The position numbers and the translations under genes were made by a program. The notes under the pieces are model-generated. The model searched no databases. It saw nothing but the letters and a program-made list of their open reading frames with translations, and was not told the DNA's origin. Positions 236 through 35,274 of a stretch of 64,000 bases of DNA are shown here, in pieces. Source of the stretch: Convolutriloba macropyga (taxonomy: Eukaryota); contig NC_134475.1 of NCBI RefSeq assembly GCF_964194025.1, positions 50,096,001 to 50,160,000 of the forward strand, read 5' to 3'. Every line of letters begins with the position of its first letter. Position 1 is the stretch's first letter.

Positions 236-363
236 ACACCAAGATGGGTCCTGACTTCTCCAAAGAATTGCGGAACAATCCTTGCTCGTGTCCCTCGTCT
301 GGGCTCTGCCCTGTCCGCTTGCTCCAGTGCCTCTTCAAAGAAGCCAACTGTCTGTGAGAAGTC

Positions 364-1470: not shown

Positions 1471-1479
1471 TCGTCTGTG

Positions 1480-1884
1480 TCACTTCCTTGCACAGTCCAG
1501 TTTCACGCTGTTGGAACTCTTCTTGAATTCTAGAACGCTGCAGGGTAAGTAAAACAAATTATTTTCTTGTGTTAGTTTTACCCGAGTTCCCTTCTGGAGT
1601 TTCATGCAGCTATTTCCTTTCTTGAAAGTGAAGCTATGTCCCCACTCCGTGCATCTTGAGACTGATAAGAGGTTTGAAGAGTAGTCCGGCACACACAAAA
1701 CATTTTTGAGATCGCATTGGAATTCCCCTTTGTTTGAGGGTATGCTGATCCTCGCACAGCATCTGCCCACCACTCTGGAAGCCTCTCCGTTGGGACTTCT
1801 AACCACTGAGTGAATGGGCACAAAGTCCAGGAACGCATCGATGTTCGTCACTATGTGATCTGTACAACCACTGCCCACTAGCAT
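1480..1884 (-). pseudogene. copia aspartic protease / beta-barrel region
   Basis: LVGSGCTDHI (catalytic D of DSG changed to G); LKNVLCVPDYSSNLLSVS motif. Confidence 0.85.
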
Positions 1885-1914
1885 GCCTGCTGTCTTCCAC
1901 TGAGTAAGAGATGC

Positions 1915-5640: not shown

Positions 5641-8327
5641 TTTTATTGTTCCGACCCTCTTGAGGGGGGAGGAACTATATACTCAACTGGGTTTGTTTTT
5701 TTTTGTTCCGTGAATTTTCGCCGCTCGATATATTCATCGTAGAGAGTTGAGACTGGTATCATTAGAAAGCTCGTCCAGCGTAGAATATGGAATTAAAAAG
5801 ATTTTTTTAATTCTCGTTTTCTACAGGGAGTTATCGAGGCTTAAACTTCTGAGAAAAGAAGAGTGAATTCACTTTGTTTTTATTCACATTTTCCGGAATT
5901 TTTGCCTAAATTTTCGTCAATTTTGCTAAAATTTGTTATAATTTTTAAGAATAGTATCGTTGATTTTATTTTTGAAGACGAACAAGCATTTTTGATTGTT
6001 TTGATTTAACTTTTTGATCAAAAAATCTGGATAAACATTTCAAAATTTAGCCTTTTTCATCAACAACAGCACGAAATAAGCTACTTTAGTCCACTTTGAT
6101 TAAATTGGCCTACAGTACACCCCCAAACAACACTCATACAATCTTTGTAGACTCAGAGGGGGGCTATTTCTACTTCAGAGTCCGCAGAGAGTGCCTTGTA
6201 GTTAAAACTTTGCCGTTTTTTGCTAACTTTACTCGTTGATTTTCAAAAATGCAAAATTTATTTTGAGTTTCAACTCAGAAATTATCTATATCTACAACAT
6301 TCGAAAAATCAATTGTTCTTAAAGGACAATAAGTATTAACAGGGGTAGTTTTGGGCCATTCTTGGACTGTTACAATCCAAAAAAAAATCGGGTTGTAATC
6401 AGTCGGTCTTTTTTTTAAAAAAAGAAGACTTTTTTTTTTAATAATAAAGAACAGAACATATCAAATCAAAGCTCAGGAGTGATAGGTCCAACCAATTCGC
6501 TTGCTAAACAGCTCCAGGCTAATGCATTTAGTTTTTTAATTGAAAGTTTATGGTCGTTTCTTTTTTAAAAATAATTGACTTTTCAATAAATAATGGCTTA
6601 ATTAACTTTTCCTCTATTTTTTTCTTAATTTGTTCAACTTCCAGCTTAGTGTCAGCAAAAAAAGACTGCTTCTTCTTTCTACTGAGTTAACATTTATTCT
6701 CGGTTGCAGTTTTCAGCCTGAAATTATTGTTTTCTGGCTTTGATACTACAAGATTTTAGATTTTTGTTTGTTTTGATATTTGCCAGTTTTTCACGTTTTC
6801 TAATTTTGTCACATTATCACATTATTGACAGTTCTCATGTCACCTTATTAGCATTCAAATTAAAGCACAATTGAACATATTAAAATCCTGAAAGATATAA
6901 ATCATCGTTTTAATGGCCTCGACGCCTCTTTCTTGAAGAAATCAATTGAATTTTTTAATTTTGTCTTAACTGTCATTTATACTTTGTCGTTTCGGTCGTA
7001 TGAAATTTCCTGTATAGTGATAGCTGTCATTGGCTTTTCAAGGAAGAATAGAAAAACCGATATTCTGATATTAGCAGATAGCTGATGGCTTTTATGACTT
7101 TCAAACCCATCGTTTTCCAAAATTAAAAAAAAAACTTTTTTAACTTCGCAATTTTGTTCTTTTTATGTTTCTTTTTGTTACCTAATCACGTTAGTTGATT
7201 ACAGGTCAAATATGACATTATGGGTGTCAAGGGAATAAAAGGGATTGGTGTCCCAAAATCTTTTTTTTAAAGATTTTATTATGACCTTACTGGCTTCGAC
7301 ACCGCTTTTTCACAAAAAAAAAATTAAATTAATTTGATTTTTGTCATATTTGACGTTCTTTTTGTAGATACAAGAAATATTCTGGATAATTACAGGTCTC
7401 GAGGGTTTCCTTTTCATGAAAAAACGACGATATTTAAATAGCTCTTTTTGTAATTAATGCCTTTCATGACATTGAATGTAATTTTGTTTCGAAAAAAAAA
7501 TTAAAAGTATTACATACTTTAGCACTTCGCTTTTTTGTCTACTTATTACCTAGTCTTACTAATGAATGGCCACGTACTACATTATAGCTGTTTGAAGAAG
7601 GCGCAATCAAATATATTTTGAGTGCCAAAATTTGGCTTGACGGTTTTGACAGCGTTTTCTGGCAAGTTTCAATTGAAATTTTGTTTGTTCTTTGTTGTTC
7701 TTTTTAGCCGCTCTAATAAATGAATAAGGTCAGGTCCTAATGACCTTCTATAGAAGCAGTGGTGATCGCAAATTTGTGGTAATATTAATTCATTCCTAAT
7801 GGTATTTATTACTTTGAAGTTAATTGTTTCAAAAAAATAAGTTAATTTTTTTTACTTTTCTGTTTTTGTTCTTTTTTGTATAATTGTTACCAAACCTTTT
7901 TATGGACTGGTCGCATATGTTTTCTGGTGATTTATAAGTTATTTTTGTTTAGTGTCAGGTTTATCTGACGGTATGTTGACTTTGTTATTAAATTTAGTTT
8001 TTAAGAGGGACATAAATTTTTTGATGTAATTAATGTTTGTTGTTGTTGTTGTTTGATTTTGCTGTTCGTTTTGACTCGCTTTCTTAATATTGACATAATA
8101 CAGCAATCTAATGCATTAATTTTCACTCCACTGAGTTATTTGTTTTGGAGGTTATCTTATCGTTCATACAGAATTTTTTGAAAAAGACTTGGGCTTTTTT
8201 GGGATTCGCAAAAAATAATTTTTGGGTTTTTCTATCTGTTCCTCATTTGGTAGACAATTATGCCAAAATTGTGGATGGGCGGGTTCGGAACCTTATGTGC
8301 CATTGCACATTACCGAGCCGCCTTGTT
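5641..8327 (+). mobile_element. Helentron-associated non-autonomous element (DINE-1/HINE-like), family B, ~2.7 kb
   Basis: 5' TTTTATTGTTCCGACCC with nearby partial inverted repeat; 3' subterminal GGGTTCGGAAC (8281..8291), hairpin ATGTGC-CATT-GCACAT (8295..8310), end CTTGTT. Homologous in inverted orientation to 62067..64000. Confidence 0.75.
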
Positions 8328-13154: not shown

Positions 13155-14098
13155 TGTAAGATTGCCTATCGCGTGCTCAAACACGTTCTCGGGAGCAAGT
13201 ACTTCCGCTGAGCCTCGCGCTCTTCTGGTATTCTCCCGGGTTCCTGTGCTTCTCCTCTGCAAGGGGGCAACCTTACTTCTGTTGTTGGCTACTGGACCAG
13301 GAAGAAAAGAGTTGCAGCTAGAAGACTGAATTGAAGTCTTCTGGAGAGGGTAGCTGGAGAGAAGGCCAAGTCCGTTGTTGAAGCTCCAAAAAGTCCGAAA
13401 CACTGATTTTGAATTTTTCAGAGTCCTCCTTTTATCCTACTTTTCCATATGCCTTAAGTTTAGCCAATCAAAAGCATTGACGTCAGAACTCTGCTTCTTT
13501 TGTTTTGGTAATACATACCGCATGGAGCATGAACTTGGAATTACCAACCCTCTCCTCAGCATCCTTTCCTATTTTGTTCATGCATACAGATTTAATCAGA
13601 ATCACATACCCATATTTCAAGTAAATTACTTTTTAATAAATTGCACATATGTGTTTCTACTAAATGAGGGGTATGAAATTGGTAATTCATTAAAAAGGGT
13701 AATATTATTTGTTTTACGGTGTAATCAACCACCTGAGCCTCGCTTCTTTGCTGACTTTTGCTACTAAGTTCAAACTACATTTCCTATTCAATATTTGCTT
13801 ATAAATTTTGTTTGGTTTATCAACTTTGACGATTTGGTGGATCTTGGATCAACTACGAATGGAGACAATCAACGTAGCAAGAAATCAGCAAGATCATTGG
13901 GTCAGTAGTAAAATAAAAACAAAACTTGAAAGACAATTGTAGACTGTATATAAGTATACTTTGTTCATATATGTTGGTGAATTAATCTTATTCCCTTAGT
14001 CAAGCGAATAGCGCTTGGCTCAGGCATATTTCTTATAGTATTTGAGGCTATGCAACAATTATTTTAGTCCTAAATTGCGTCTATTTTTCAATCCTACA
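13155..14098 (-). repeat. gypsy 3' LTR (944 bp)
   Basis: TGTAAG...CCTACA; direct repeat of 22253..23198 with about 13 substitutions and 2 small indels by manual comparison. Confidence 0.97.
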
Positions 14099-14216
14099 TA
14101 CCCGTCATCTAGTCTGGCTATTCTCCTGAATAGCAGTAATCAAGCAAATATAAATTGAGCAACTGTAAAAAATTAGATCTTTGGGTAGAAGTCTAGCTTC
14201 CCTGCAGGAAGTTTAA

Positions 14217-16288
14217 CTACAGGTTCTTCCTTCTCATCTTCTCATTACTTTTGCTGAATGTGACTCTTTCTACTGCCGGTGACTCTTGTTTAAGTTTATT
14301 CGCAAGAAACCGCCGAAGTCTTGCCAACAGCTTCCAGTGACCACAAGCAACACCCAAACCAACTGCCAACAGGATAGCGAGGAATATACAACTGTTGAAG
14401 GGAACTATCCCGTGTTGCATAAGCTTCTCGCTGTAGTCCTGACGTTGCATTTTTTGATGCTGTATGAAGGGTTCTGCCAATTGATGTAGTTTTTCGGCAT
14501 AAATATTTTCGTCCGGTAGATGGTTAAATGTTAATTTGACGGCTTTGAAGATCTCCGATTTCATATGATCCTTTTCGGGGGCTGGTGCCAATGTGAACTG
14601 TTTTTCCACGTGATCAAACATTTCCTGTAGGATCCCAGGTAGTTGAATGTTTGTTATCTTTCCTGTGTCAACACTGCACACCTCGGTTCCGGATGAAGGA
14701 TTAGACCACCACTAGGGAGTTCTAGATGACCATTGCAGGGTGGTTGCACCAAACAAACTCTACAGCCAGATATTTGGCCTGCTCGGGTGTCCATTGTTAC
14801 GTTAAGAAGATGATAATTGTTGTGTTCCGACTGCAGAAGAAACATAGATTGCTTCAGGTATTGGGCTGACGGGTTGGCCGGCAGCGGGATTATTTTCTGT
14901 GGACACAATTTCATCGCGTCAGTCTTTTGGTCAAAAAAGAGGCTGCTAAGACACGAGCTCTTCGCTGATCTTGTTAGGGCAAACGGATTTTTGCAGAACC
15001 GAAGACGGTCAGTACCATGGCATTTGACTAATTCAGACCTATCCAATTCCCCAAAGAATTCTTGCCGTGGGGAGACGACAAAGTACTCTTTCTGAAAATT
15101 GTAAATTGTTGCCGTCTTTCCGCTGTTCAGTGGTTGTGGAATCGCCACAGTCCGATAGACTTGGTATTTTGCGTAGGTGTAATGAAATGGAATTTCGAGT
15201 TCAATATAGAGTCCTTTGGATGTTATTTCGGCGACTTTTACAAGTTCGAATTCGTAATATGCAGACATCTCGCTCTTGCTGATTGCGGGGAACCATCCCG
15301 TTTGTTCCACCTTCGACACAATGTCCCTAATTTGCGGTGGCGGTAACAAGCTGGCCGGTAATAGTCCTTTGGTTAGAGAAACTAGGGCATCGCTTAGCAC
15401 ATATCCCAGGTTAGTCACAATGGCACGTGCAAAGAGAACTTGCCCCTGTAGTTCGGATATAATTCTTAGTAGATTCTCGATCTGCAAGTTGACTTTCAGC
15501 CCATCTCGATACGCTTGGGTTATCTTGCATCCCCAACCACTCATGCGTTCCCACTCTTTCCCTATTTCATTGATTTGGGTGACAAGCAACTCTAAGTTTC
15601 TGTCGGTATTGTTCCTGATGGTCTCGACACGAGTGCGCGTAGCGAGCTCCTCAGCACTCAGAATTTTGACTGCACTTCCCGTTTGAATGTTTAGCCAGTC
15701 CACGTTCCACTTGTTTCTCTGGTTTTCTTCATGCGGTTTCTCTATGTGCTTTGCTTCTTTTGATTTGCATAAACCGATTATAGAGAAGAGTTTACAGCCT
15801 GCTGCCTCCAGCTTCGGACACAGGATGAGTGCAGCTCCTGCCGCCAATAGCACGTTGACTTGTCTCCTTTGCCTCGATTCCTCATGTACCACATTGGAAT
15901 GGTTGCTAAACAATGACATCCGGTCCTTGAATAGCTGATAATCCTGTAGGAGTCGTTGATATTCGTTTTCTAATTCAATAACAGCACTAGCAGTCAAGTT
16001 TCCGTAACTCTCCGTGACAACCGTGGAAGAGCAAATGCGTCCTTTGTAGTTTCCGTCCCATTGTTGGGTCACATCCTGCGCGAGGTCGTGTCTTGCGAGT
16101 TGAAGTTGGGTAACGTCGATGCGTGGGAGTTCTGGAAAAGGTACAAACAATCTCATCGTCTTGAAAGAAGAGGCCACAAACACCGTCGTATCTGGGATGA
16201 ACACCACTCCTGCTTCTAGCCAATCGTCTTGAAGGAAATCACCAGGTTTGAAGAGAATCAGCCAGTATATGAGAAGATTTCGCAGCAT
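14217..16288 (-). pseudogene. env: env: class I fusion glycoprotein of the baculovirus-F/errantivirus type, one frameshift near 14670-14690
   Basis: Signal peptide MLRNLLIYWLILF; furin site RQRR (15863..15874) followed by hydrophobic QVNVLLAAGAALILC; heptad-like helices; GLLPASLLPP and YIELEIP motifs; Cys-rich region; TM CIFLAILLAVGLGVAC and basic tail in 14217..14681. Confidence 0.88.
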
Positions 16289-16375
16289 TTTAGCACTCAC
16301 AAAGTTTTATCAAGCAGGATAAGAGGTAAAGCCAAGACAAAGTAACCCAGAAATATGATTTTGAAAGGCAAAGGC

Positions 16376-16420
16376 CCGCTATTTATACTATTCAAGTTGA
16401 AAACTAACCAATAGGATTGG
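16376..16420 (-). promoter_or_regulatory. putative internal env promoter (CCAAT + TATA)
   Basis: Minus strand CCAATCCTATTGG then AGTATAAATAGC, ~90 bp upstream of the env ATG, in the non-coding pol-env spacer. Confidence 0.45.
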
Positions 16421-16610
16421 TACTGTTTGTGATTAGTTGGTTACTTTGACCTAGCACATTGTATAATACTACTTCATGCCTTCAAAATACTACTTCATTT
16501 TTTTTAAATGTAGATTGATTACACTATATAAAATTAGTATCATATTCGCATTCGTTATTTCTGCATTGATATTGTAATCATAATAATTTATCATGCAACA
16601 AATAAAAGTT

Positions 16611-18388
16611 TTACAGTCCCATTCTGTCGACTGGTCGTCGTGTTCTTCTCGGATATCGGCGCTGTTCATCATTGTCAATGTAGTTCGGTTCGTCTTCAAC
16701 AATCACCGGTTGCTCTCCAGTTTCATCAATTGTTGCCTCCTGTTCGGGCTCGACTTCGTTAGTTGCTGGCTCTTTATCGTCATTGTTTTCTGGAATCGGA
16801 GCCATAATTTGGGGTGGTTCATCGAAAATATCTTGTATGTCCCCAACAATGTTATCGTCGTCCCGCATGTCGTATACAGGCTCCCTAACTCTCCTGTGGA
16901 TCCTCCGATTACGCTGCAGCAATGCATCATCTTCATCGTCGCTACTTGGCAAATGGTCCGCATCGTAACGTTCAGTCTTTCTGCAATTCGCATGGATCGA
17001 CGAAGATGCTGATCCTCATTTTCTGATCGGGCTTTGAAGGTCTACAGTCTGTTATAGTGCACAAGCTGATTTTTCTTTTTGTTCTTCTGGGAACAAATTT
17101 TGTAATTGACTTCATTAATTGTTTGTACAACGGTATATGGGCCAGTCCATGGTAGGTAGAACTTCTTTGACTTTGCCAGTTGAGGGGAAAAGAGCCACAC
17201 CTTGTCGTCTTTCTGATACGGTTTTCCGTACGTTCTCTTGAAAAACTTATCCTTCTGTCTTTGTTGTACTGCGCCTAGGGTCTCACGAGCACACATGTGG
17301 GCTTCCCGAAACTTCTCGTCCAAAAGTTGAGTGTACTCGGGTACTGTAAGTTCTGTGTCTGGTGGCCTGGGGAACATAAAGTCAATGGGGTAGACGGCTT
17401 CGTCTCCAAACACTAGCGAGAAAGGGGTTTCTCCTGTCGACTTGTGGACAGTTGTGTTGTACACGAACTCCCATTCCTTTGGATTTTCTGAGCAGTATTT
17501 GCTGATCACATCTGCCAGAACTCTATTGTGGCGCTCTACTTGCCCATTTCCTTGTGGGTGGTATGGAGACGTCCGGGATCTTTCTATGTTTAGGAGGGTG
17601 CACACTTCAGTCATGAGTTCACTGCAGAAATTGGTTCCTTGATCTGTATGCAACGAATCGGGGGCTCCAAACCGCACAACCCACTTCTCAACGAAAGCCT
17701 TTGCCACATCTGCCGCTGTTATTGTTGAGAGAGGGACAGTGATTACGTATTTCGTAAATTAGTCAGTTAAGACCAAGATGTATTTGTTTCCCGTGTCTCG
17801 GTTACGCGTTACTGGTCCCAGGATGTCGGCAGCCACTTTCGCGAACCGTACACCCACTGTGATTGGTTGCAACTCGGCTTTCAAATTTCTGCCAGCTGTC
17901 GATCGCGCTGCACATGGTTTGCAACTTTTGATCCAATTATCAATGTCTCTTCTCTTCATGGGCCACCAGAACCGTTGTCGAGTTCTATCGAGTGTCTTGT
18001 GTAAGGAAAAGTGCCCTCCTGTTACCTTGGAGTCGTGCAGTTGTTCTAGTACGCTGCGCTTTGCAACTTGTGGTACAACGATAAGTTCTCGATAGCCGTC
18101 TTTGCCAGGGGTATACCACTTTCGTATGAGTATACCATCCTTCATCATGAATTGCTCCCAATTATTCCACAACCCGAGGACTTCAGGTCCCAGCTTCTGA
18201 GCTTGTTCCCTCGTCATTGGGTTCACTCCAAAAGTACTGCAGTTGTGCTGTCTGTCATTCAGTGGTACCGTAGCTTTTTGCAGAATCGTGGCAATAGCTA
18301 ATCTTCCCTGTTTTGCCCTGACTTCATCACTGCTAGCTTTGAGTTCCACTGAGGTCAAGTTTTCTTCCGAATGGTGCGTTATCGACAA
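16611..18388 (-). pseudogene. pol: gypsy integrase and acidic C-terminal tail
   Basis: HDSKVTGGH...CKPC zinc finger; DILGP, TDQGTNF and YHPQGNGQVER (DDE); WTGPY (GPY/F); tail ending RRYPRRTRRPVDR. Internal stops at ~17759 and ~17042. Confidence 0.93.
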
Positions 18389-18406
18389 AAGAAAAACCTC
18401 TGGTTC

Positions 18407-19782
18407 TCACAATTTAGCTATTGCCGTCTCCAAGTTCGTGGGTTCCGGACAAGATCCAGTTAATGCCTCTTCCTCGCCCTCCTGCCACTCAGGTTCCCTT
18501 GTTGTTTGCCGAGAAAGAACGTCTGCATTGCCATGTTTCTCACCAGGCCGGAGAATTACTTGGAACTCAAAATCTCGCAACACCTCGATCATTCTGTATG
18601 TCATTCCGTCAGCATTCTGACGAAAGAGCCATTGTAAACTAGCGTGGTCTGGCCGAAGTATAAAGGGGATACACAGCAAATAGGAGCGGAACCACTTTAC
18701 TGCTTGAACAACCGCCAACGCTTCTCTTTTCGTTGTACTGTAGTTTACTTCTGTTCGAGTCAGCACGCGACTAGCGAAAGCAAGTGGATTCTCCGTATTG
18801 CTGTCTAGATTCGACAGAACAGCTGCATTGCTGTGGTTGCTAGCGTCAGTGTCCAAAACAAAAGGTCGGTCGTAATTTGGATGGCTCAAAATTGGTGCTC
18901 CGATGAGTCTATTCTTCAGAACTTCAAAGGAACGCTGACAATTCTCGTTCCAATAGAATCGCTGGTGCTTTTTAGTAAGCTCATGAAGGGGCTTCGCTAT
19001 ACCCGCAAAGTCTTTAACAAATCGTCTGTAGTAGCTACAAAAGCCAACAAATGACCGTACTTCCGTTGTATTAGTGGGTTCAGGCCACTTCGATAGGGCG
19101 TTCAGTTTCCCCTCATCTGGCCATATTCCATCCGCTCTAATGTGATATCCAAGGTAGGACACTGCTGTTTGAATCAGCTTGCATTTCGAGGGCTTCAGTT
19201 TCAATCCGGCTGACGCTAGTCTCTCCAAAACAATTTTGAGGTGTCTGAGGTGCTCTTCCAGGTTCTGGCTGTAGATGAGGACATCATCGAGAAAGATGGT
19301 CACAAAATCATATAACTCTTCTTTGAACAATTGATTCATGAGGCGCTGGAAAGTTGCAGGCGCATTGCACAGTCCGAAGGGTAGCCGCTTGTACTCATAG
19401 TGGCCCCATCTGGCGTTGAGAAGGCTGTTTTCGGTCTAGCACTCTCAGTGAGTGGTACTTGCCAGTAGCCCGCTGCTAGGTCCAAGGAGCTGTCAAATTG
19501 GGCTCCTTCCAAGCAATCCAAGATCTGATCAATTAATGGCAATGGAAATGCGTCCTTTTTGGTGATCGCGTTGAGTTTGCGGAAATCTACACAGAAACGT
19601 GAAGTGCCATCCTTCTTTGCCACTAAGACCACTGGAGCACTCCAATCGCTTTTTGACGGTTGGATGATGTCAAAATCGAGCATCTGTTGCACTTGTTTCT
19701 TAATCTCTGCCAGCTTAGCCGGGGTGGTCTTGTAAGCCGGTAGCTTGATTGGCGCGGTCGCTGGTTTCAATGTTGTGCTCAA
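18407..19782 (-). pseudogene. pol: gypsy reverse transcriptase and RNase H, frameshifted
   Basis: SDWSAPVVLVAKKDGTSRFCVDFRKLN, LDLAAGYWQV, FLDD, LDTDAS, YSTTKREALAVV, DHASL, HGNADVLSR. Confidence 0.95.
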
Positions 19783-21283
19783 CTAGGTTGGTAAGGACCA
19801 ATTCATTGTCATCCTTTGCAAAATTGGCTCTAAAATTGTAGACAATCTGCTCCGCTACGTCTTTCTGTTGGTTGTTGGCACCGTTTGTGTTCTCAAGGAG
19901 TGCCTCCGTGATTTCGTCTACGTCAGCGTTGAATTGAGCATCTTCGCTGATTGTGGAGAGCACTCTAGGGGCTCCCTTTATTGAATCTTCCTTCAAAATT
20001 TCTTCAGATGATTGGTCAGGGATGATCAAAAATCTAACCTCAGAAACGCCAAATATTCTGATGATGAAATCGTGTACGATCTCCATGTTCAATCCAAGGA
20101 GCTTCAGGTCCTTTTCATCAATTCTGAGCTCCAATGTGTGGTATCGTTCGGCTTTGGTTCGAAGGTTCGAAAACAAGCGCCAAAGATCTGTGTACAGTAC
20201 CTTTTCTCCCTGTTGAAACCAGGGGTTAATGTAATAACGTGTATTGGACCCCTTGTCGCAATGAAAAACTGCCCCTGATCGTTTTCCGAATAATTTGAAA
20301 CGGAGTCCAAGTGCGTTGTCATTTTCTACTAAATTGTTCTCTGTTTCGGGCGAATTGGGCATCAGTTGCACCATTGGCATTCTGCGGCGTTGTTCAGAAA
20401 CATAATCACGGTTTTCGAACGCAAACCGATTGGGGGTGGTACTCTCGATTTCGTAAAATTGCTCGAAGAGCCAGTTAGTGTCTTCTAGCTCCTCTCGGTT
20501 CTTCGGCCATGCGGTTTTTCTAACTTTGGCGATTAGGGCACCCGCTTCGATCTTCACTCTTGTTTCTGCATGGTTTTCTATGACTATTTTGCCATGGCCA
20601 CCGCCATCACACGAGTAAATTTCAGGAATAGCCAGTAATGACTTCTTGGGCCAATTCGTTTCCGAGACCAGAAAGTTTCCTTGAGACAAGTTTACCCCGC
20701 TCTCCGAGATCTCAATCTCCACAGATAGTCTCCCGTAGGGTGCTATTTCTATCGCGTTTAGGCATCTGGCGGTCAAGAATCCCCCTTCGAAGCCACTCAT
20801 CTCACTTGGCCCGTGGTCGATATTGTTGGCAATCTCTTCGGTCTTGAATACACAATCGAATGCCACAGCACTCGATTCAGTAGTACCGGTGAATAATCGA
20901 CCCGTGTGGAAGTCGATCGAACATTGATTGGGCTTAAGGAAAGCTGTGCCAAGAATGATGTTCACTGGCAGCATCGGGGCTACCAGAAAGCCTGCATCGC
21001 ACACAAACTTGCCGCCCATGCAAAATGGCAAGGTCTTTTTACCCAGGAGTCGGATCTGCTTTCCCTCCGCATGGTACACTGTCCCGTCATACTTCTGTAG
21101 TGGTACGGGGTACTGTTCTGCTATCTCCTTGGACATGAGGTTTACCCCACTGCCGGTGTCCACTACAGCTCTTCTTTCAGCTCCACTAATATCGGCTTTC
21201 ACTAGTATCGATGGGCCGCAACTTTCTCCTACTGACGTTGCTTTCGAGGATCCGGGTCGTTTTAGGACAAAAACGGGTGACAC
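19715..21283 (-). CDS. pol: gypsy pol N-terminal part: aspartic protease, dUTPase-like relic, degenerate macrodomain
   Basis: VVDTGSGVNLM and IILGTAFL (retropepsin); 20515..20776 beta-rich dUTPase-like segment; 20015..20431 aligns with the TARG1/OARD1 macrodomain. Open for 522 codons. Confidence 0.85.
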   Translation of the reverse strand: MSPVFVLKRPGSSKATSVGESCGPSILVKADISGAERRAVVDTGSGVNLMSKEIAEQYPVPLQKYDGTVYHAEGKQIRLLGKKTLPFCMGGKFVCDAGFLVAPMLPVNIILGTAFLKPNQCSIDFHTGRLFTGTTESSAVAFDCVFKTEEIANNIDHGPSEMSGFEGGFLTARCLNAIEIAPYGRLSVEIEISESGVNLSQGNFLVSETNWPKKSLLAIPEIYSCDGGGHGKIVIENHAETRVKIEAGALIAKVRKTAWPKNREELEDTNWLFEQFYEIESTTPNRFAFENRDYVSEQRRRMPMVQLMPNSPETENNLVENDNALGLRFKLFGKRSGAVFHCDKGSNTRYYINPWFQQGEKVLYTDLWRLFSNLRTKAERYHTLELRIDEKDLKLLGLNMEIVHDFIIRIFGVSEVRFLIIPDQSSEEILKEDSIKGAPRVLSTISEDAQFNADVDEITEALLENTNGANNQQKDVAEQIVYNFRANFAKDDNELVLTNLVEHNIETSDRANQATGLQDHPG

Positions 21284-22197
21284 AATGCTGGCCGGAGCAG
21301 TCCTGTGTGGATTATGTTCTCGCCCCGGCCGATCCTCGTTTAAATGCTCCTTCTTATTTGGGCAGTTTCGAGAATAGTGCCCTCATGGCACGCATAGCAC
21401 TCAATGTCTTGTTTTGCCCTTTCGCTCCTTTCTGGTCCCTGAGGTTTCATTGCCTGGAAACCATTCTTCATGACCTGCATCATTTCCTCCTGCATCTTAA
21501 GGGACTGCACAAGCGATGATTGAATTGAATCTAGAGCAGTACTGTTTCCCAAGTCTGTGCCCTCAACGTCCACATATCGTACACCAACACCACGGCGGCG
21601 GTAACTCTGAGCTTCAACCTTGGTCACTGCTTCAAGATTTAGTGCTCTCTGGTATGCTGCATTCAGCGTTGCGGGTTCTTCCCGCAGTAGGTTCCCCCTC
21701 ACGTCTGGTTCCACCAATCCTTCTATGAAGGTCTCTTTCGCAGCCAAGTCCCTTGCATCTGCCGCTAGAGCTGCATTGGCCGATGTCCACTTTCCTCACT
21801 GTCCACAATCTTCTCAGATTCCCTTTGTTGCAGACTCTTGAATTCTGCCCTGGCCGTCCTAAGGTTTGGGTAGTCTCCGATCCTGTTCCTTAACTCGTTG
21901 AGTTGAATCTGGAGTGTTGGTGCTGGGTGTCCTGCTTCCTGTTGCAGGAACTGCGCCGGGAGTATGTAGTACTCGTCAATTGCATGACCAGTCAAGCATG
22001 TTGGCGGAATTTCTTCTTGACTGAGCGTCATTCCACCCGTTCGCTTGACAGACAGCATGGAAGTGTCTCGCCCAACGGTCGAAAGAGTTGAAGAACTTCG
22101 ACGGGAACTCGCTGGGTACTTGGGCTTGGGGGCCTCCTGCCGCTGGAGCCACTGCAGCACCGCCACCTCCTCCCGCTCCAGCTCCTGGTTGTGCCAT
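21283..22197 (-). pseudogene. gag: gypsy gag, frameshifted
   Basis: ATG 22197; FDRWARHFHAVCQANGW; ARAEFKSLQQRESEKI (major-homology-like); ETFIEGL; CYACHE..H...C knuckle split by a frameshift. Confidence 0.88.
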
Positions 22198-22232
22198 CTG
22201 AAGCTGGAAATTGTCTCCTTCTTCCTCACAGT

Positions 22233-22251
22233 AGCCTCTCTGGGACCACCA
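22233..22251 (-). promoter_or_regulatory. gypsy primer-binding site
   Basis: TGGTGGTCCCAGAGAGGCT begins 1 nt after the 5' LTR and is complementary to a tRNA 3' end (...CTCTCTGGGACCACCA). Isoacceptor not determined. Confidence 0.85.
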
Positions 22252-22252
22252 C

Positions 22253-23198
22253 TGTAAGATTGCCTATCGCGTGCTCAAACACGTTCTCGGGAGCAAGTAC
22301 TTCCGCTGAGCCTCGCGCTCTTCTGGTATTCTCCCGGGTTCCTGTGCTTTTCCTCTGCAAGGGGTCAACCTCACTTCTGTTGTTGGCTACTGGACCAGGC
22401 AGAAGAAAAGAGTTGCAGCTAGAAGATTGAATTGAAGTCTTCTAGAGAGGGAAGCTGGAGAGAGGGCCAAGTCCGTTGTTGAAGCTCCAAAAAGTCCGAA
22501 ACACTGATTTTGAATTTTTCAGAGTCCTCCTTTTATCCTACTTTTCCATATGCCTTAAGTTTAGCCAATCAAAAGCATTGACGTCAGAACTCTGCTTCTT
22601 TTGTTTTGGTAATACATACCGCATGGAGCATGAACTTGGAATTACCAACCCTCTCCTCAGCATCCTTTCCTTTTTTGTTCATGCATACAGATTTAATCAG
22701 AATCACATACCCATATTTCAAGTAAATTATTTTTAATAAATTGCACATATGTGTTTCTACTAAATGAGGGGTATGAAATTGGTAATTCATTAAAAAGGGT
22801 AATATAATTTGTTTTACGGTGTAATCAACCACCTGAGCCTCGCTTCGTTGCTGACTGTTGCTACTAAGTTCAAACTACATTTCCTATTCAATATTTGCTT
22901 ATAAATTTTGTTTGGTATATCAACTTTGACGATTTGGTGGATCTTGGATCAACTACGAATGGAGACAATCAACGTAGCAAGAAATCAGCAAGATCATTGG
23001 GTCAGTAGTAAAATAAAAACAAAACTTGAAAGACAATTGTAGACTGTATATAAGTATACTTTGTTCATATATGTTGGTGAATTAATCTTATTCCCTTAGT
23101 CAAGCGAATAGCGCTTGGCTCAGGCATATTTATTATAGTATTTGAGGCTATGCAACAATTATTTTAGTCCTAAATTGCGTCTATTTTTCAATCCTACA
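22253..23198 (-). repeat. gypsy 5' LTR (946 bp)
   Basis: TGTAAG...CCTACA, adjacent to the PBS; direct repeat of 13155..14098. Confidence 0.97.
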
Positions 23199-24612: not shown

Positions 24613-25444
24613 CATCCTCTGAAGCTCAAACGCTTTCATTGATGGTTAAACTTCTTAAAGCTATGTGAAAATCAAATGTGTCAATTGTGCAAAGATAAAT
24701 TAATTTGGAGATTGAATAAAAATAATACTTGTGTCTAGAATGATTACTTTTGTTTTCTCTAATTTTTGAAGATTGGTAATTTAAATATCTAAATGCTCTG
24801 CTTTTACGACAGAACACTGCTCTCGATATTAGTTTAATAAGATTTTAGCTTGACATTTAAGTATTTAGATCATTTCCGCTTTTTAATCAAATTCTCCGTC
24901 TTATTTCCTCTTAGAGTTGAAGCATTTTGAAGCATTGATGTTTTTTGAAGCATTTGGGCTATAGGCGTTTGCTGATTAGGTTGGTTTCCAACCAGTCAAT
25001 CTTTACCCAACTGTCCTAAATATAGCTGACAGTTGCTTGAAACCACTTCAGTTCGTTTTGGTTTCATTGTTGAAGCAAGCTGTTGAAAAACTTTTGATAA
25101 AGTTAAAAAATGGCAACACAAATCTAGAACCACATATTATTGACTTCCTGAGGTTTTTGTCAGCATTAAATTAGCTTGACCTAAATAGAATCACTTGATA
25201 AGCATGGCTATGTTAAGGTACTCTGATGAGGTCACTTAGAAAAACTGGTGTTCGTCGGGAAACGCGTAGCTGTTTGAGATGAAAGTCAGAATTTCAAAAT
25301 GTATATAGCACTTGAGCAGAGTAACGCTATTTAGCTTTAGACACGGAATTTGGAGATTTAAAAGCTGTCACTGAGTGTCAGAAAATCTGGCGTTGTGTGT
25401 GAAATAGACAGATTTCGAATAGTTTTGAAAAAAAGCAGTAAATA

Positions 25445-26221
25445 CACTATAGTACCAAAAAGCTACGTACAACACAATTTGTGCGCTTTAAGCGTTACTT
25501 TTGCTCAAAGCGTTTGATTGTCGGAAAAGCGTGAAGAAAGGCGTGAAAATTTTAAGTTTTAAACGCGATTTCATTCTAATTTTTTCCGCTTACACAGAAA
25601 AGAAGGTTACGCTGCTTTGTTAATTCACTGTTTGCCATGCTGTTGCGATTGGAAACGCCCAATGTTGATAGTCAGAAAACAAGTGACTCAGCCTAAAATC
25701 AAGATAGCAGTTTCAAGACAGTATACAGTATGCATACAAGCTACAACAAAGGTGTACCAGGCTTAGGGCGTCTCTAGCGAAGGAATTGTTCGAGTTGTTT
25801 GGAGAAATTACACGAGATTTTTTGGCAACTTTTTGATTTTTCACAAGCAATCACTCATCTCGTGGGGTAAAAACATCAGATGAGCGGACACTGTTTGTTA
25901 GGTGATCAAACAAGCTTAAGGGCCCAGTTCGCATGGAATCGTTGAAAAATTACGAAAAAGAACTTCATTTTCGAAAACTTATTTTTCATCAAGATGATGC
26001 TTCTGTGCATAAAGCAAAGGTTGTCAACAAATTCTTCAAAGAAGAGGAGAGGGAGGTACTGAAATGGTGGTTCATAAACTGTCTACCATATGTTAGAAAA
26101 ACTAGGAGCCTAACTTCCCGTTATTAGAGAACTAATTTGAACTCAAAATGTTGTATTATTTGATGTTTGTGCAGCTTTTAAATTTTTTTTTTGGTGTACG
26201 TAGCTTTTTGGTACTATAGTG
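25445..26221 (+). mobile_element. Tc1/mariner internal-deletion derivative (777 bp)
   Basis: Perfect 27-bp TIRs CACTATAGTACCAAAAAGCTACGTACA, TA on both flanks; transposase remnant FHQDDASVHKAK...VLKW (second catalytic D region) at 25933..26127. Confidence 0.92.
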
Positions 26222-27465
26222 TATATTGACAACATGAATGACAGGCAGCGCATCATTTGCAGTTTATCAGTTGATGTTAAAGCGTAAACTAGCCCTCAAT
26301 AAAACAAAGAACAATTTGATAATAAATCTAAATTAGGTCAACCTAGTTATAAGTTCGTTAGCTAACGAATCGAACGTTAGATAACAACCAAATGTTGCGC
26401 ACAATTTTAATCTAAGAAAGTGTAAGGACTGCTGCTTTCGAGGGCAAATTGGTTATTCTGCATTCTTATGCATTTTTTTTGTTCAACAGCAGTCAACCAC
26501 AAAATAGCCAAAATAACTTGCTGAGTGAAAATTATGTTAAATGCCAGTGAACACGACTAGTTTGAAAACGAGTACTTTTAGACAACCACTAATAAATTTT
26601 AGTCTTTCTGTAATTGAAAGAATGTCGCAGTTGTTCTCAAGAGTTGTGGTTCGTGGTTCTACTGTAAAGTTGTTTTTCGTGCGCCATGAAAATCTCGGCT
26701 GCTTTTTGGGGAAACGCCGAGCTCACCCAAGGAAAAGAGAATTCTGCTAAGGCTTCAGATTGAAAGCACCAGTGCTTATCTTTGACTTCTTACCTGATGA
26801 AGTGGGAAAACTTTGGTTGTTGACGCAATTCAGAAAAACCACTCAAGGTGTTAATTCCTCCAAGATTTTTTTTGTTATCTGACCAAAATGGAAGAACCAA
26901 AATAATTGACAAGAAAGGACTACTGCACATGAGGAGAATGAAATGGACTGCTATTGTGCTGATGATCAGAGTTATGATAACCAAGTTGATTGCCCTTTGC
27001 CACACTTAGATATTGGTTTGATCGGCTTCTTGGTTTGATCGTGAGGTACTGAAAAACCTAACAAGTGAAAAAATGTCTCTAGTTTCTTACTTAGCCTTCG
27101 AAAGCTGAAAATCCGAGCGGCTATGAGTATTGTTATTCAATCGACGATTTGCCCATTTTTATACAAATAGAACAAATTTTTGCGTTGTTTGGAATAGATG
27201 ATTTACCCTCTTGAATATTTTTATTAATTTGTCTAAGTAACAGAAAAATGAAGCAAACACATAAAAAGCACTATGATAGCAATAAACTCCCCGTCGTTGT
27301 TATTAGTATTCATATGGTTTTCTCAGAAAACTCCCAAAAATTCAATTTTTAGACTAAAGGATTGTGAAGTTCCGTTTGTTTGCTTTCTGAACATCGTTTT
27401 TGTTTTTTGCCCAAAAGCAATATGCGCGGATTCATCATCTTTTCGAATAATTTTAAAAAGCAAGG

Positions 27466-29155
27466 AAAACATTCACGGAAGATTACCCAGAAATAGCCAC
27501 CGTTGATTTCCATAACCAACATTAGGACTGAAAAAAGAAAAAAACTAATGAAAAAATGATTTTTGTACACAATTTAAAAGTGCAAACTAATTTGCTGTCA
27601 TTTTGGAGCTGAACAAACTCCTGTTTTGTGAGAAAACACAGACTAGTATATACCAATAAGTAACAACGATGGTAACTAAGAACAAAGTTCGAATAACACG
27701 CATCTAAAATTGGGCTTGATGAATTAATCCCGATTCTTTTTCTTATTCCGTATTTTGATTCTTTCTCTAATCATTTTTAACTGCTGCCTAAAACACTTTT
27801 AGCTGAACGAGAGAGGAGTGAAACTAGCCTAGAGAAGTCAAAAAGATTTCAAGCGAAATGTTGAACAAGCTGTAAACTAAGTAAGTTACAGCAAAAAAAA
27901 TTTTTGATCGACGGAGTAAAAAAACATAGCACGACAAAAACTGACGTACAATCCAAAGAATTTTCATTGACTAGACAAAAACTAGAACGGACTATAAGAG
28001 GATTGGGAAAACCGTTTAAAAAAGCTGATCAAAAAAATTGAAAAAACAGTAAAAGCCAAAGTGACATTGACGCATGTGAACAAAAAACCACTAGCGGACG
28101 CATGTGAACAAAAAACCACTAGCGGGAAAGCGAATTTTTGTTCAAACTCCGTTTTCTCACTCTACTTTAACTTCTTTGAATTGTATTTAAAAACATAGCC
28201 CGAAGAATTCCGGAAACGACTCGAAGAGGGAAATCCACTCAAACGCCATCCAACTACTCATCAGACAAAACGTCCCTCCATTAATTTATGATTATCTTGA
28301 CAAAAAAACCATAAAACAAAAAAAGTAAAACAAGAAAATCAAATCTGTTACATTATGATAAAAAATCTGATCAAACTTTGTCATAAATTTAGATCCCGAA
28401 ATAACTATCTCTGCCAAAATTACTCCATCAAAACAACTAGTACCTACTAAAACCACTTATGAGATTTTTTTAAAAAATACTTGAAGCCAAATAATGAAAG
28501 AATAAGCTCTTACACACAACTTTTTATATTACAAAAGCACTTAAATCCAAAGAAAAATTCCTTTGCCATTTTTTGTCATATTGTTCAATAAAAAATGCTT
28601 TATATCCACAAAACTGCAACCACTTGTTATCTAAAAATTGCTCAAGTCATAGGGGGTCTTTTCAATACCCATTTAAGGCAGTAAAACAAAACAATCGTCG
28701 AAAAATCGCAAATTTAGCCTAAAATCAGCAAAATACATGAAAAACCCCGAATTTGCATAAAGCTCATATGAATTTCCAAGACTTCAAACCACTAACAAAT
28801 CCAGCTTCAAATTAAAACGAGATCATAAAACCTCAACCAAAAAAATTTTAAAAAAACTGCTTCGACATGCCGCACGTGAACAAAAAATTTTGCTAGCTTA
28901 CAGAATTTTGTTTTCACATCAATTTCTCGCTCTCTAGAAAACAGCGATATGAACAAAAAACCGCTCTCTTATCGCTCCACTCTTCATTTTGTTCAGCAAC
29001 AAAATCACTCAAAATTTTTTCACGTGTTTCATTTCCTGCTTCAAAATTCACTCCAATAAAATTGATTAAAAAAGGACTCCTCCAATACTCCTCTTCGAGT
29101 CGTAAAAAGATAGGAGCGCTATAATAGCCGGCTGAGAAGCTGAGGCGGCTATTAA
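27466..29155 (-). mobile_element. HINE/DINE-1-like element family A, copy 1 (both ends)
   Basis: On +, degenerate hairpin plus AATAGCCACC at left, and ATAATAGCCGGCTGAGAAGCTGAGGCGGCTATTAA at right; body shared with the other copies. Confidence 0.78.
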
Positions 29156-31469
29156 TCAAAAAACATTTAGTGCTTTCCTAGTGTTCGAGTTTGATAACTT
29201 CGCTCGACCCCAGGTTCTCGCTAACATTAAAACATTTGGTTAAGTATGTTTTCGTTCTTTCCTAACGCATAATTCCAAGTTGACTCAAATTAGAATACTT
29301 ATATCAAAGGTGTCTGAATTGAGTCGCAACTCCAAAGAGTTTCCGTCAACTAATAACAAAAAATGTAATTAGAAAGGTAGCACTCAATAGTCAGTAGGGG
29401 TAGATCGGCTATGATCAAAAACATTTAGTTCATATCCCCACAACCGTACGCTGATAATTGAATAACGTCATAATGGTTCAGTGTCGCATTCATTAAACAT
29501 TCATTAAACACTCTCGAATGATTGGTGAAGGTGTTGGCTTTTTCAGTCACTAGCTTAAGGTTAGCGAGCCTTTTATTTCTGAGTGCCAGAAAGGGGGCGA
29601 GGGGCAAAAACGAATACACACAAGCTCACAAGGTGGCGGAAAGGTATCTCCCAGCCAACTCTTGCCTCTTTCAGGTTTCTTTCCACTGTTCGGAGGAGCG
29701 CGTGGAGTGCGTGGGTGGTGATAGGCAGGGTAGGGAGGGGGTGATCCAAGAATCACAGGGTTGTGCTGAATGGCATACTCAAGACTGGTAGGGCTCTAAG
29801 AGCACTGCTCAGTGAATCAAAACCCTCGAGCTCTACGTTTCTCAAGAGTGAAAATCCTAAAAATTTCTCGGACCAAAACCCTTCAAACAGATAATTTGTC
29901 GTATGAAGATTTGCATAAACAGACGAACACTACTAAAATTAACTGCAACAACCTTGGTTTGCGAGCAACTAATAATAAATTTCCGTGTCATTCTCACGCG
30001 CAAATGAGATTAGTGCAAAAAACGGAAAATCAAACATCTTCCCACTGGATTTTTTTTCCGGAAATAATCGATTTTAGAAAATAATCCATCCGTCAAAATG
30101 CCAATGACTATTAAGTGTCAATTTCTACTAAATAAAAACAACCAGATATAGAAAATCAAAAAGTAACCCCACCCCACTTTCTTTTTCACCACGTATCCGA
30201 AAAAGTAACAAAAAGTGAACAGCTTAAAAATTTTAAGTAATCATGGACGACTACTCATAGACGAGTTAAACTATTCTCAAACTTCACACATTCAACCATT
30301 TCAACGAACCTGTTCGCAGCTAAAACATCCAATTGGTCATTTTGACACCATTATTTGCGTACTTTGAAGGCGAGCAACATCAATTGCAATTGTGGGAAAA
30401 CTGAAAATTAAAGCAAATACGGTCCCCCCTTTTTTCTTATTCAGCATGATAAAATTTTCTTACGTAATGGGTTAATTGGACTGCTAGTTATTTCACATCA
30501 CCCTTTACAACGGAAAGAAATGTCTCCGGAAAGAAACAATTAGACGCCTCCCTGCTTTGACGCGTGTCTTTGTATTCACATCCTCGGGGAAATAATAACT
30601 TATTATTAACAAATCCATCGAATATTTTTGTATTAACTTTATTCGCAACAAAATCCTATCAAAACTAATAAGTCATCGCTCGCTTTAATTGGACCGTGGC
30701 AACAGTAGAGCGTTTGTAATAATCAATTGTTATTTCATATAATTAGACACAGTTAAATTTATGGAAATAACAACTCGTGATCAAATTTCAGCGAGCAGGA
30801 ATAACATAATAGGTTGAAGAGCAATATAGCATAAACAGTCAAAATCTACTTTTTCAACACACCTATTAATTACAAGTGACTATTGTGAATTATGTACAAG
30901 TGTGTAATTCTTAATTATGCCGCACAGCCGTTGAGCAGCTACTTTGTTACTGTTCCTAATTCAGCTAATTAGCAGTAAACAATTGAGTATTTTCAGGAAA
31001 AGCGCTGATGAAAAGTACAACACTAATAGGATAATTGGCACGCCCATTTAATATATCAGGGATCTTTTTAACAATCACCTCCCCTGTTCCAGGGAGAGGG
31101 AGAGGGGCAATTTTTGAATGGAATATAAGCGAGCAATTTATAGATCACAACTCATATGAACCGAAGGCTTGGGTGCACGATAATTAATTTAGCATTGAGT
31201 GTATTTTTTGGGGGGGGGGGGGGGGGTTGGATCAATTTTTTAGTAAAGAGGAGGCGATTGTTGAAAAGATTCCATTTCAGTTCATGTTTTTTTTTTTGGT
31301 TTTTTATACTTTCTACAGTTCAAAACCTTCAGTTTTAAAATCTATATAGTTGTTCACTTGTCGTAGGCGCCTAGGATCCAATTCCACATGACAAAACTCC
31401 AAAATTACATCCCAATATATGCATTTTACTATGATTGACAATTTCGTAAATTGTTTTTTTAGCGTTAGC

Positions 31470-32650
31470 TCATTTGCACTTCTTGTACAATTCCGAGACT
31501 TTTCCGCCACTAACAACCACATAGTTAACAATAAGCATTAGATACAACACAGTGTTAGCAACAAGCAATTTATGCAACCTATACAAATAGCAGACAAACG
31601 AAAAGTATATACCGCACAAAAATATAACACTGACTATTTTGCTAATCAGCCTGTTGTGATAAAACCTAAAATTGGCCAGGTGTGCTTTGCATGTATCGGG
31701 GGACACTAACTTTACAGCTAAATGGGTACAATAAACAAATATACAGGCGACTGCATTTGGAAATGTCGGGTCAGAGTAGATGTAGTTTGGCTGTTTGTCT
31801 TTCAACAAGGCGACCATGAACAAAACATTGGGCAATGAGTTTATACAGCAAAATAGGAACCCTAATTTGTGAAGTCTAACTTCGGAATCACTGATGATAT
31901 GAGCACCTAAAACGAGCTTTTCACATTTAGCTTGATTAATTTGGCAACTATCGACTGAAGATCTTTTCAACATCGAGCACAAAGATTCTCTAATTGATTT
32001 GCATCGAAATTCAGAGAGTGAGCAGCGAATAGTTAACAGAAATAGAAGAGCCAAACTTAAAACTGCCGCTAAGCTTGGAAACACATAGCTGAGAAATGTT
32101 AATAGCACCATTTGAAATATACTGGTATTAAACTTGAAAATTGGCCGCAGAATTAAAATCAGTTTTGTAAATGGAATAACAAAGCACAAGAGTTCCACTA
32201 AAAATTCAACTATTAAAACTAATAGAGCGATGACTACCCATCCAGTTATGAACATGATGATCGGAGTCCAATTTTGAAACAATTCCTCATCAACTGCAAA
32301 CTTCAAATCAAAGGATGACAAAGCGGTTTCCTCCTTTTTAAAACCTCGCATCATTATTGATAGAGATGACGTCACGGCTATTGTGAACATTAGCTCAAGG
32401 AAGAAATTGAGTTTGAAACAGGAGCTAGGGAGTATTCCCTCGAAATGATCGGCGATGTTGCAGTGGAGCAGTATCATGATGATGATGAGCAAGTACGTGG
32501 GTAGAGACGTGACTTGGGACCTGATGTAGTGGAACCACCCGAAGATGGAGTTTGATAACTTGAAACTGACTGGACAACCGATGGGTTTCACTGTTTTGAG
32601 GGTAAAGGAGGAGTAGGGCAGCCATGATACCAATAACAGGTGATTATCTC
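31470..32650 (-). CDS. PGAP1: PGAP1 terminal exon (multi-pass TM domain, C-terminal KKCK dilysine signal)
   Basis: atttag|GA GAT phase-1 acceptor; GCPVSFKLSNSIFGWFHYIRSQVTSLPTYLL resembles the PGAP1 pre-TM segment; many hydrophobic helices; ends ELYKKCK-stop. Confidence 0.85.
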
Positions 32651-35226
32651 CTAAATCATTATACCAGTACACACTTTTAGGTGAAAGCCGTTTATATGAA
32701 TCTGAAACTTTAAGCCACGCAAAACAAATACCAATCCCACCGAAACCAAATTTTTTTTGGAATAATTTCATACCAAAATCCAGCATATGCTCTCAACATC
32801 AAATAGGTTTACAAATGAAAGACGGATACTTTGTATCAAACAATCAATTTAAAACTAAACGGCGTTTTATCCTTCTATAAGTTGCCCATTAGTTCGATAG
32901 ATATAGTTAAGTTCCAGAACAAGAAACATACCCGGCAGACGGCCGGAAAATAGCCGCCGTTGATTCCCATAACTCTATTGGGATTGAAAGAAAAGAAAAT
33001 ATCAACAAAACTTGATTTTTGTATAAAAACATTTTTAAGTGCGATTTATTTTGATGTCATATCGTAAATGAACATACTCATGTCTCTCAGTGAGAGGCTA
33101 CAGGGTCTAGTATCAATACCAACAAGCATTATAGATAGTATCTAAAACTCATGCGAACAAAGTTCAAGTACCGGGCATCTAAAAATGGGCTTTATGGGTT
33201 TATCCCGTTTCTATTTCTGACTTTGATTTTTTTATACTGACTCTCTTTATTTTGAATTGCTCTGCTGAGCAGCTGCTGTTTAAAAGGACTTTGAGCGGAA
33301 TGACAGAAGAGTGAAACTAGCCTAGAGAAGTCAAAACGATTCCATGCAAAATGTCGAAAAAGCGGCAAAATGGGAAAGCGAAAAAAAAGTTCGACGAAGT
33401 AAAAAAAATAGTAGGACAAGTTCTGAAATACAATTCAAAGAATTGAATAAAAAACTTAAAAGTACTCTACCTGACCAGCAGATCAATTCAACAAAACCAG
33501 CCAAAACACAAACAAACTCATCTCAAAAAATTGAGAATCTAAAACAATCGAACAAACTAAAGAAAAACATACTCATTACTAGAACTCTTGAAGCTTTTAC
33601 TGCTTAGGCAGAATTTCATCCCATAAAATATACTTGTTTCAAAAATATGTTCAAGGCAAGTTTTATTTTTGAAATTGGTCCAGTATTATATCTGCATGAC
33701 CTGAACAAAATCATTGTCCCTTGAAGATCGATTAACTCAAAAATGACCGAAAAATTTAAAAGAAATCAATAGCAAACTGTAATGAAGTTTTGCTGAAAAT
33801 CAGGATATTACAATCTTCAGAATCATTTCTGTGTCTCTAGAGGCTATCCATTAATCAAATTCCAAGCACTAAAAAATTCATTGGGTCAAAGATCGATAGG
33901 CAAAAGTTTTCAAAAAATCTTAAATTTCAAAAATAGAAATTCGTTCTATTAAAATGTTGAAACCCATTCAATTGCACACTAGCAATTATCTAATAACAGA
34001 CTATCAAACCCTGGATGAGGTTAGCTGGCTACCGCGGCAAGAAAAACTGAATAAAAGTAAAATGTTTTGAAAATTGCAATTTTAATCAAAAAATTTCTAA
34101 TATTCTAAAGGCTAAATTGTTGAAAACAAATCCATTGAAACTAACAACCATGCCGTAAATTTTTATCAGACCGTGGAATAGGTTTTCTGGCACTTGAGAA
34201 TGGAGAAATATCAAAAATTGACAAAAACTTTAGGCCAACTTGAAAAAATTGCAGATTTTATTTTAAAAAAATGCCGAATTTCGAGAAATGTTGGAAATCA
34301 ATCCATTATTGCTAAAAGACAATCAGTGCTCTATTATAAAACAACAAAGGACGTTTCCTGGCCGCTGAAGCTCGAAAAACTCAAACATACTCGGCAGATT
34401 GCCGGAAAATAGCCGCCGTTGATTCCAATAAGCATGATTGGGATTGAACGAATAGAATATATTGAAAAAAAAAAGATTTTTGTACAAAAATATTTTTTAA
34501 GTCCGATTTATTTTGATGGCATTTCGTAGTTGAACATACTTCTGTTTCTTAGAGAGAGGCTACAGGGGCTACTATCAACTCCAATAAGCAATAGAGGTGG
34601 TAACTAAGACTTATAGGAACGACGTTCAAATAGCGGGCATCTAAAATTGGGCTTTATGGGTTTATCCCGTTTCTATTTCTGACTTCAATTTTTTATACCG
34701 ACTCTGTTCATTTTGAATTGCTTTGCTTAGCAACTGATGTTCAAATTCACTTTTAGCAGAATGAGAGAAGAGAGAAACTAGCCTAGAGAAGTCAAAAAGA
34801 TTTCACGCAAAATTTCGAAAAAGCGGCAAAATGGTAAAGCGAAAAAAAGTTTGACGAAGTAAAAAAAAAATACGAGCGCAATAATAGCCGGCTGAGAAGA
34901 TGAGGGCGGCTATTAATAAATGACAAAAATTTTCAAAAAATTTGTAGTATTTGTAGTACCAAAATATCTAGCACATAAAATGGTCATAACAGGTCATTTT
35001 TGTCTCACAATAGGCCTTCATCAATTTTCAAAAACTTCAACTTAAGACTAATCAAACAAATAGAAAACAATCACAAAAAACATGAAAAATTGCAACATTT
35101 TGAGCCCAAAAACTAAAAATGACCTTTACCTGTTTATCCCGTTTTGAAAGATCAAAGTCATTGAAAAATGTGTGAACACATCATAAAAAACACAGCGACC
35201 CAATACAATTCAAATTCTTTGAATTG

Positions 35227-35274
<48 letters not shown>

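Follow-up and report, generated by a model that had tools for sequence, protein, structure and literature searches.

A long terminal repeat (LTR) retroelement in the genome of Convolutriloba macropyga probably carries, inside its Pol polyprotein, a degenerate domain of the TARG1/OARD1 class of macrodomains. The element lies on the minus strand of a 64,000-nucleotide stretch of contig NC_134475.1 (NCBI RefSeq assembly GCF_964194025.1, positions 50,096,001 to 50,160,000), here called the window, and all positions given are counted from its first letter. On the reading that we favour, to which a probability of roughly 55% is given, the segment is a TARG1/OARD1-derived pseudo-enzyme whose enzyme activity and ADP-ribose pocket have both been lost and which Pol retains in a non-catalytic role. 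The homology of the candidate domain to TARG1-class macrodomains is itself quite probable, though not proven.

The candidate domain (20015-20431) is a minus-strand reading, the plus strand of the region having stops, and it shares with the protease a frame of 555 codons without a stop (19715-21382). Its C-terminal ~90 residues (20015-20284), the putative TARG1-class part, follow the order strand-strand-helix-strand-helix-helix-strand; the N-terminal ~50 residues (20285-20431) have no glycine-rich loop 1, and their predicted local distance difference test (pLDDT) score is below 50 in both AlphaFold models described below. A preliminary description of this DNA had placed the domain in an open pol frame between protease and reverse transcriptase (RT). 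The frame is indeed stop-free across the domain, but it is broken downstream and in gag. The position also stands, but the domain is not alone there: a conserved beta-rich segment of ~90 residues (20519-20785, minus strand) precedes it, and the family's Pol holds the candidate domain in frame between this segment and a helix before RT. Together the two segments make up the extra length between the protease and RT motifs, which are about 520 codons apart in the window copy vs 248-315 in relatives, a comparison limited to the 11 relatives (11/11 measurable) with both motifs in one protein. The beta-rich segment, possibly dUTPase-like, had no match in Pfam, PHROG or the PDB; its profile found its own family only among 296 proteins, and the segment is absent from the protease-RT intervals of relatives.

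The TARG1-class assignment, as first proposed, draws on four weak-to-moderate lines of evidence (a feature search of the ESM Atlas, a glocal profile comparison, hhalign and domains in clade relatives) but comes with no confident fold match. In the Atlas search, which was blind to the hypothesis, Macro clusters came first (top score 0.91, 175 shared features, recognition 2631); PF01661 is found on 31% of the members of the top cluster, and the ten best named matches all belong to one clan. The tool carries a warning that 4-10% of shuffled sequences reach such scores, though not with a family that had been named in advance. The glocal comparison used a position-specific scoring matrix (PSSM) from a profile of 15 phage and plasmid Poa1p/TARG1-type relatives of T4 Tk.4, which retrieves human TARG1 at 1e-21. 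Over the last 90 columns of this prokaryotic profile the window copy scored 19.3 bits, whereas the best of 2530 decoy windows, cut from 224 retroelement proteins, scored 8.8; none of 500 shuffles came up to the window copy, the reversed sequence scored -9.1, and rank 1 was obtained for all seven family copies tested. The hhalign comparisons gave P values of 0.017, 0.021, 0.029 and 0.055, each time in the register of the preliminary description and over the C-terminal 58-88 columns, and a MAFFT alignment returned the same register as hhalign and the glocal profile. In the hhalign shuffle control, run for two of six settings, 5/100 and 31/100 shuffles equalled the real score. The TARG1 text aligned in the preliminary description agrees with the PDB chain of TARG1, and the gapless alignment of 88 residues contains 16 identities (18%) by hand count.

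The fourth line comes from related elements. Relatives were taken from an RT-RNase H search (the best 120 of 5874 matches), in which those listed are 49-79% identical to the window element. In a FastTree RT-RNase H tree of 55 sequences, namely the window element, 30 relatives and 24 other gypsy proteins picked from the lists, the window element and the 30 relatives form one clade with support of 1.0 and weak inner branches. The prokaryotic profile matched 12 of 296 stored proteins (Tk.4 aside) at E<0.01, all of them in this clade, and partial domains were found in three further members; a complete or partial domain is thus carried by 15 of the 30 relatives. The remaining 15 show no macrodomain, but several of them are truncated; one such case is the nearest relative, P0179, with a predicted protein that starts just past the position of the candidate domain. 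RNase H and integrase flank eleven of the complete sister domains (ten of one sublineage, and P0194), and one, in P0196, lies upstream of the protease. A profile of eight of the 12 sister domains aligned with human TARG1 over the full length at E=1e-33, the next class being DarG at 3e-7, and sister domains such as those of P0194 and P0208 are by this comparison clear members of the TARG1 class. Pfam, run on six macrodomain-bearing relatives, returned at best ThsA_Macro at E=0.057, in one of the six; domains of this kind are therefore probably under-annotated. Labels of the OARD1-like type are frequent on transposon-derived predicted proteins in animal annotations, and specialists may know the association informally.

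With the probable domain of the window counted, TARG1-class domains would stand at three Pol boundaries in one gypsy clade. This variable position was missed in the preliminary description and is a more interesting result than the single domain. The three sites may reflect one capture with relocation or several captures; a macrodomain tree, with no cellular animal TARG1 in it and with poor alignment and support, separates neither and places the window domain on a long branch. A GDSL esterase is encoded in frame after integrase in two members of the same clade, P0195 and P0196, the latter being also the protein with the macrodomain before the protease.

Database searches with the candidate domain itself returned no match in Pfam, PHROGs or PDB sequences, and against phage genomes only three tail-protein matches at E=0.8. 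In a profile search of 1.84 billion proteins, the 150 matches listed were own-family fragments and RT, with no distant relative of the domain above about 46 bits; the profile contained RT columns, and the matches listed were therefore crowded by such sequences. Pfam Macro matched none of the 21 long gypsy proteins from this search.

A number of results weigh against the reading favoured here. Local HMMER searches with the prokaryotic and sister profiles left the candidate domain undetected (62 and 158 of 2000 shuffles were as good), it was missing from the six-frame HMMER matches with either macrodomain profile, and the pairwise z-scores, none of the 27 exceeding 2, did not stand out from those of control regions. 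A second Atlas query, with copy P0004 against named clusters, gave no usable match. The 90-column boundary of the glocal comparison was taken from the alignment in the preliminary description; at other C-terminal boundaries the window copy ranked third (60 and 75 columns) or first (105 and 120 columns), and with the full-length prokaryotic profile it ranked 42 of 1523, with 5 of 500 shuffles as good. The profile from the 12 sister domains alone gave rank 39 of 2549, again with 5 of 500 shuffles as good. Above-chance similarity to macrodomains appears confined to the C-terminal ~90-120 residues. The N-terminal ~50 residues are unsupported, and the match of RFAFENRDYV to the first strand of TARG1, claimed earlier, has no statistical support: the N-terminal 55 columns rank 177 of 4018 decoys, although the spacing does fit and true sister domains fail there too. 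The candidate domain is also not notably basic (21 K+R, 19 D+E). Finally, an AlphaFold model from a family-only alignment reached a pLDDT of 46, with no macro fold among the matches listed, and a second model with sister rows added reached 52, with TARG1 matched at Z 6.0 (root-mean-square deviation 3.4, 88 residues aligned). The second alignment was seeded with eight sister macrodomains, and the model is therefore partly circular. The check for a macro fold proposed in the preliminary description thus ended in two low-confidence models and no decisive fold match.

It could be that the segment is no macrodomain but has some other alpha/beta fold, whether GNAT-like or novel, and is unrelated, with a pattern resemblance only. 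The non-significant HMMER and pairwise tests, the failed second Atlas query and the unsupported N-terminal half are all consistent with this, as are the GNAT-type folds at the head of both structure searches made with the second AlphaFold model, at Z 5.5-6.1 and tied with TARG1. Note, however, that every structure match is below Z 8 and was obtained on a poor model, that the family named beforehand came first both in the blind Atlas search and in the independent test with the prokaryote-only profile, and that clear TARG1-class domains exist in the same clade. An unrelated fold is for these reasons considered unlikely.

The expected active site was then compared with TARG1, whose catalytic residues are given as Lys84 and Asp125 in passages of PMC8120803 (the second is written Glu125 in those of PMC7050489) and whose K84A variant is described as inactive in PMC8501950. 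At the Lys84 site (20210-20236) the window domain has Trp, or Gln in a DarG-like register, and in the Trp column no Lys is found in any of the 12 family copies that cover it. The region of loop 2 and Asp125 (20093-20122) reads IDEKDLKLLG, which is conserved in about 20 copies, and no IGCG-type Gly/Asp is present there in family copies. The N-terminal GD motif and glycine-rich loop 1 are replaced in the window family, and the N-terminal half of the window domain, where the exact register is uncertain, contains no GxG motif anywhere. That the catalytic Lys/Asp and the glycine-rich loops have been replaced, as the preliminary description stated, is supported in either of two registers. Among the 12 sister domains, nine keep the Lys equivalent and nine keep both Lys and Asp; the loop-1 glycines are present in 0/12 and the second loop-2 glycine in 1/12. 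The pocket therefore appears to be eroded clade-wide, and most of all in the window family.

Whether such a domain could still act on ADP-ribose, as a reader or decoy or as an atypical hydrolase, working against the marks that host PARPs would place on element proteins or cDNA, bears directly on the pseudo-enzyme reading. The dyad kept in 9/12 sister domains fits such a role, and so do two published cases: PMC7050489 describes SCO6735 as a hydrolase of the ALC1 class even though it lacks both dyad residues, which by analogy may be taken as a caution against reading loss of the dyad as loss of hydrolase activity, and PMC12632316 indicates that binding without catalysis matters for chikungunya virus (CHIKV) in mosquitoes. 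In the window family, however, other residues stand in place of the dyad, the GD motif and both glycine-rich loops, and the sister domains too are without loop 1 (12/12) and the second loop-2 glycine (11/12). Continued action on ADP-ribose is thus regarded as improbable.

The distribution of the segment among copies bears on its retention. With the domain as query, one search found it in 10 of 241 candidates and another in 19 of 28; the proteins are all ENA-derived and mostly 70-92% identical. At least 40 residues of the domain are covered in 34 stored family proteins and at least 120 in six; the segment, being present in 34 stored proteins, is therefore a fixed part of the window family and no one-off insertion. 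Across 37 family proteins, in a protein-level proxy for selection, 17 substitutions were shared (found in at least three copies) vs 185 rarer ones, and the shared ones were the more conservative by both a Mann-Whitney (p=0.0006) and a Fisher test (p=0.044). Two caveats apply: decay and sequencing errors are among the rare changes, and recurrent mutation can mimic sharing. The conservative nature of the shared substitutions argues that the segment was probably under selection, and the retention under selection proposed in the preliminary description is supported at the protein level only.

Set against this is the possibility that a captured TARG1 gene persists here as a relic without function, its presence as a spacer being tolerated while the frame stays open. 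The window domain is far more eroded than its sisters (a long branch), and mean identity among copies is not much higher in the domain (0.76 and 0.83) than in the flanking linkers (0.78-0.80). The domain is also dispensable in the clade, since 15 of 30 members show none and the protease-RT interval is short in 11/11 measurable relatives. The significantly conservative shared substitutions speak against a relic, and the C-terminal 90 residues retain their length and hydrophobic pattern nearly gap-free, which would be lost under drift. A mere relic is accordingly given a low probability.

If the segment is a retained pseudo-enzyme, general gypsy biology suggests that the domain would be made as part of Gag-Pol, packaged into the particle and then either cut free by the protease or kept attached ahead of RT. 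There it may act through a folded surface that binds or scaffolds nucleic acid or a partner protein, in the manner of the macrodomains of the SARS-unique domain (SUD), which do so without binding ADP-ribose; this is the least certain step. Since clade members have the domain at three different Pol boundaries, its job probably needs co-packaging only and no fixed place. A wider proposal, which we put forward tentatively and hold to be rather doubtful, is that the clade captured or moved a TARG1-class domain into Pol at the three boundaries and closed the ADP-ribose pocket each time, so that a host eraser became a new module, packaged in the particle and with a shared non-enzymatic function; the window family would be the end point of this series. 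Shielding of the RT or integrase complex or of its nucleic acid from the host ADP-ribosylation machinery would be one example of such a function.

The host element (13155-23198 from LTR to LTR, minus strand) is a member of the Ty3/gypsy group (Metaviridae) by its LTR pair, the order protease-RT-RNase H-integrase and its position in the tree. The 5' LTR (22253-23198, 946 bp, with TG...CA termini) and the 3' LTR (13155-14098, 944 bp) share 930 matches with 13 mismatches (98.6% identity), and the 5-mers that flank them, equal at 4/5 bases, are a probable target-site duplication. By sequence, a stretch resembling a primer-binding site (22234-22251, minus strand) begins with TGG, one base in from the 5' LTR. 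On the minus strand gag lies in several frame pieces (21343-22274), with its zinc knuckle broken by a frame change near 21380, a junction that is uninterrupted in family copies P0006 and P0008. The aspartyl protease (DTG; 20933-21202) matches Pfam gag-asp_proteas PF13975 at E=8.3e-7. Beyond the candidate domain lie RT and RNase H, divided between two frame pieces (18410-19782; Pfam RVT_1 and RT_RNaseH) and an integrase with zinc-binding, core and C-terminal parts (17045-18406; Pfam) that is broken by in-frame stops, those of the integrase region being at 18407-9 and 17759-61. An env-like gene in two frame pieces (14217-16306) has a signal-like start, a cleavage-site-like RQRR ahead of a hydrophobic stretch, and a C-terminal hydrophobic segment; as a gene in two pieces it matches Pfam Baculo_F at E=1.7e-4 and 20.8 bits, below the curated cut-off of 24.1. 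Frame changes in the window copy are located in gag, between the candidate domain and RT, inside RT and in env. The window copy is a young but dead element.

Elsewhere in the window, positions 1-2400 (minus strand) hold a fragment of a second LTR element with two zinc knuckles, GAG-pre-integrase, integrase and an SH3-like part in a copia-like order. At 25442-26224, inverted repeats of 36 bp (94%) flank 711 bp with decayed Tc1/mariner-like transposase traces, seen by eye. Two further minus-strand frames are without a Pfam match: one of 440 codons (31470-32792), stop-free and very hydrophobic, is possibly an exon of a multi-pass membrane gene, and the other has 279 codons (38356-39195). A dispersed repeat family (D1-D13) with spacings of ~1.46 kb and ~7 kb occupies 27460-44000, a repeat of ~1.8 kb occurs as two inverted copies, 70-80% alike, at 6370-8184 and 62154-63945, and the minus-strand frame stays open through a tandem array of 123/126 bp at 47070-47930.

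The literature covered, which largely left out subscription journals, Repbase reports and supplements, yielded no account of a macrodomain within gypsy Pol, and the keyword passages of PMC7729036, PMC4695847, PMC4245714, PMC8120803, PMC7050489 and PMC4402516 contain no retrotransposon-borne macrodomain. If the assignment is true, macrodomain capture would reach beyond RNA viruses and fish retroviruses into gypsy Pol itself, and the clade would offer a natural graded series, from domains with the dyad kept and loop 1 lost to those with everything lost, at three polyprotein positions. Such a series would make it testable whether retrotransposon macrodomains act against ADP-ribosylation or serve for something else.

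The closest cellular counterpart is human TARG1/OARD1/C6orf130 (ALC1-like class; PDB 4J5Q, 4J5R and 2L8R), which has the same length (~140 residues) and with which the 88-residue C-terminal alignment is gapless; the window domain differs in that it appears to be without the equivalents of Lys84 and Asp125 and without the glycine loops, and in that it sits inside a retroelement polyprotein. Macrodomain open reading frames (ORFs) are reported from epsilon-like endogenous retroviruses of fish (Basta et al. 2009, as cited in PMC4977317); in these, as probably in the window element with its env-like gene, an env-bearing LTR retroelement has taken up a macrodomain. As far as the description in the citing paper goes, the fish macrodomains are additional ORFs in Retroviridae, whereas the window domain is a probable in-Pol fusion, in Ty3/gypsy, and degenerate. 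In function a likeness may be seen in the SUD-N and SUD-M macrodomains of SARS-CoV, for which PMC2674928 reports a failure to bind ADP-ribose and binding to G-quadruplexes; they are viral polyprotein macrodomains without ADP-ribose binding, as the window domain is predicted to be without it, but belong to another macrodomain class. Other captures by gypsy elements include AlkB in orchid elements (PMC9289625) and GDSL, DEDDy and dUTPase domains in rotifer elements (PMC5408684, the available text of which mentions no macrodomain). The domains captured there are likewise host-derived, modification-related and fixed in gypsy lineages, GDSL being found in the clade of the window element as well; they are, however, mostly separate ORFs with catalytic residues intact, whereas the window domain is in frame in Pol and has apparently lost its active site.
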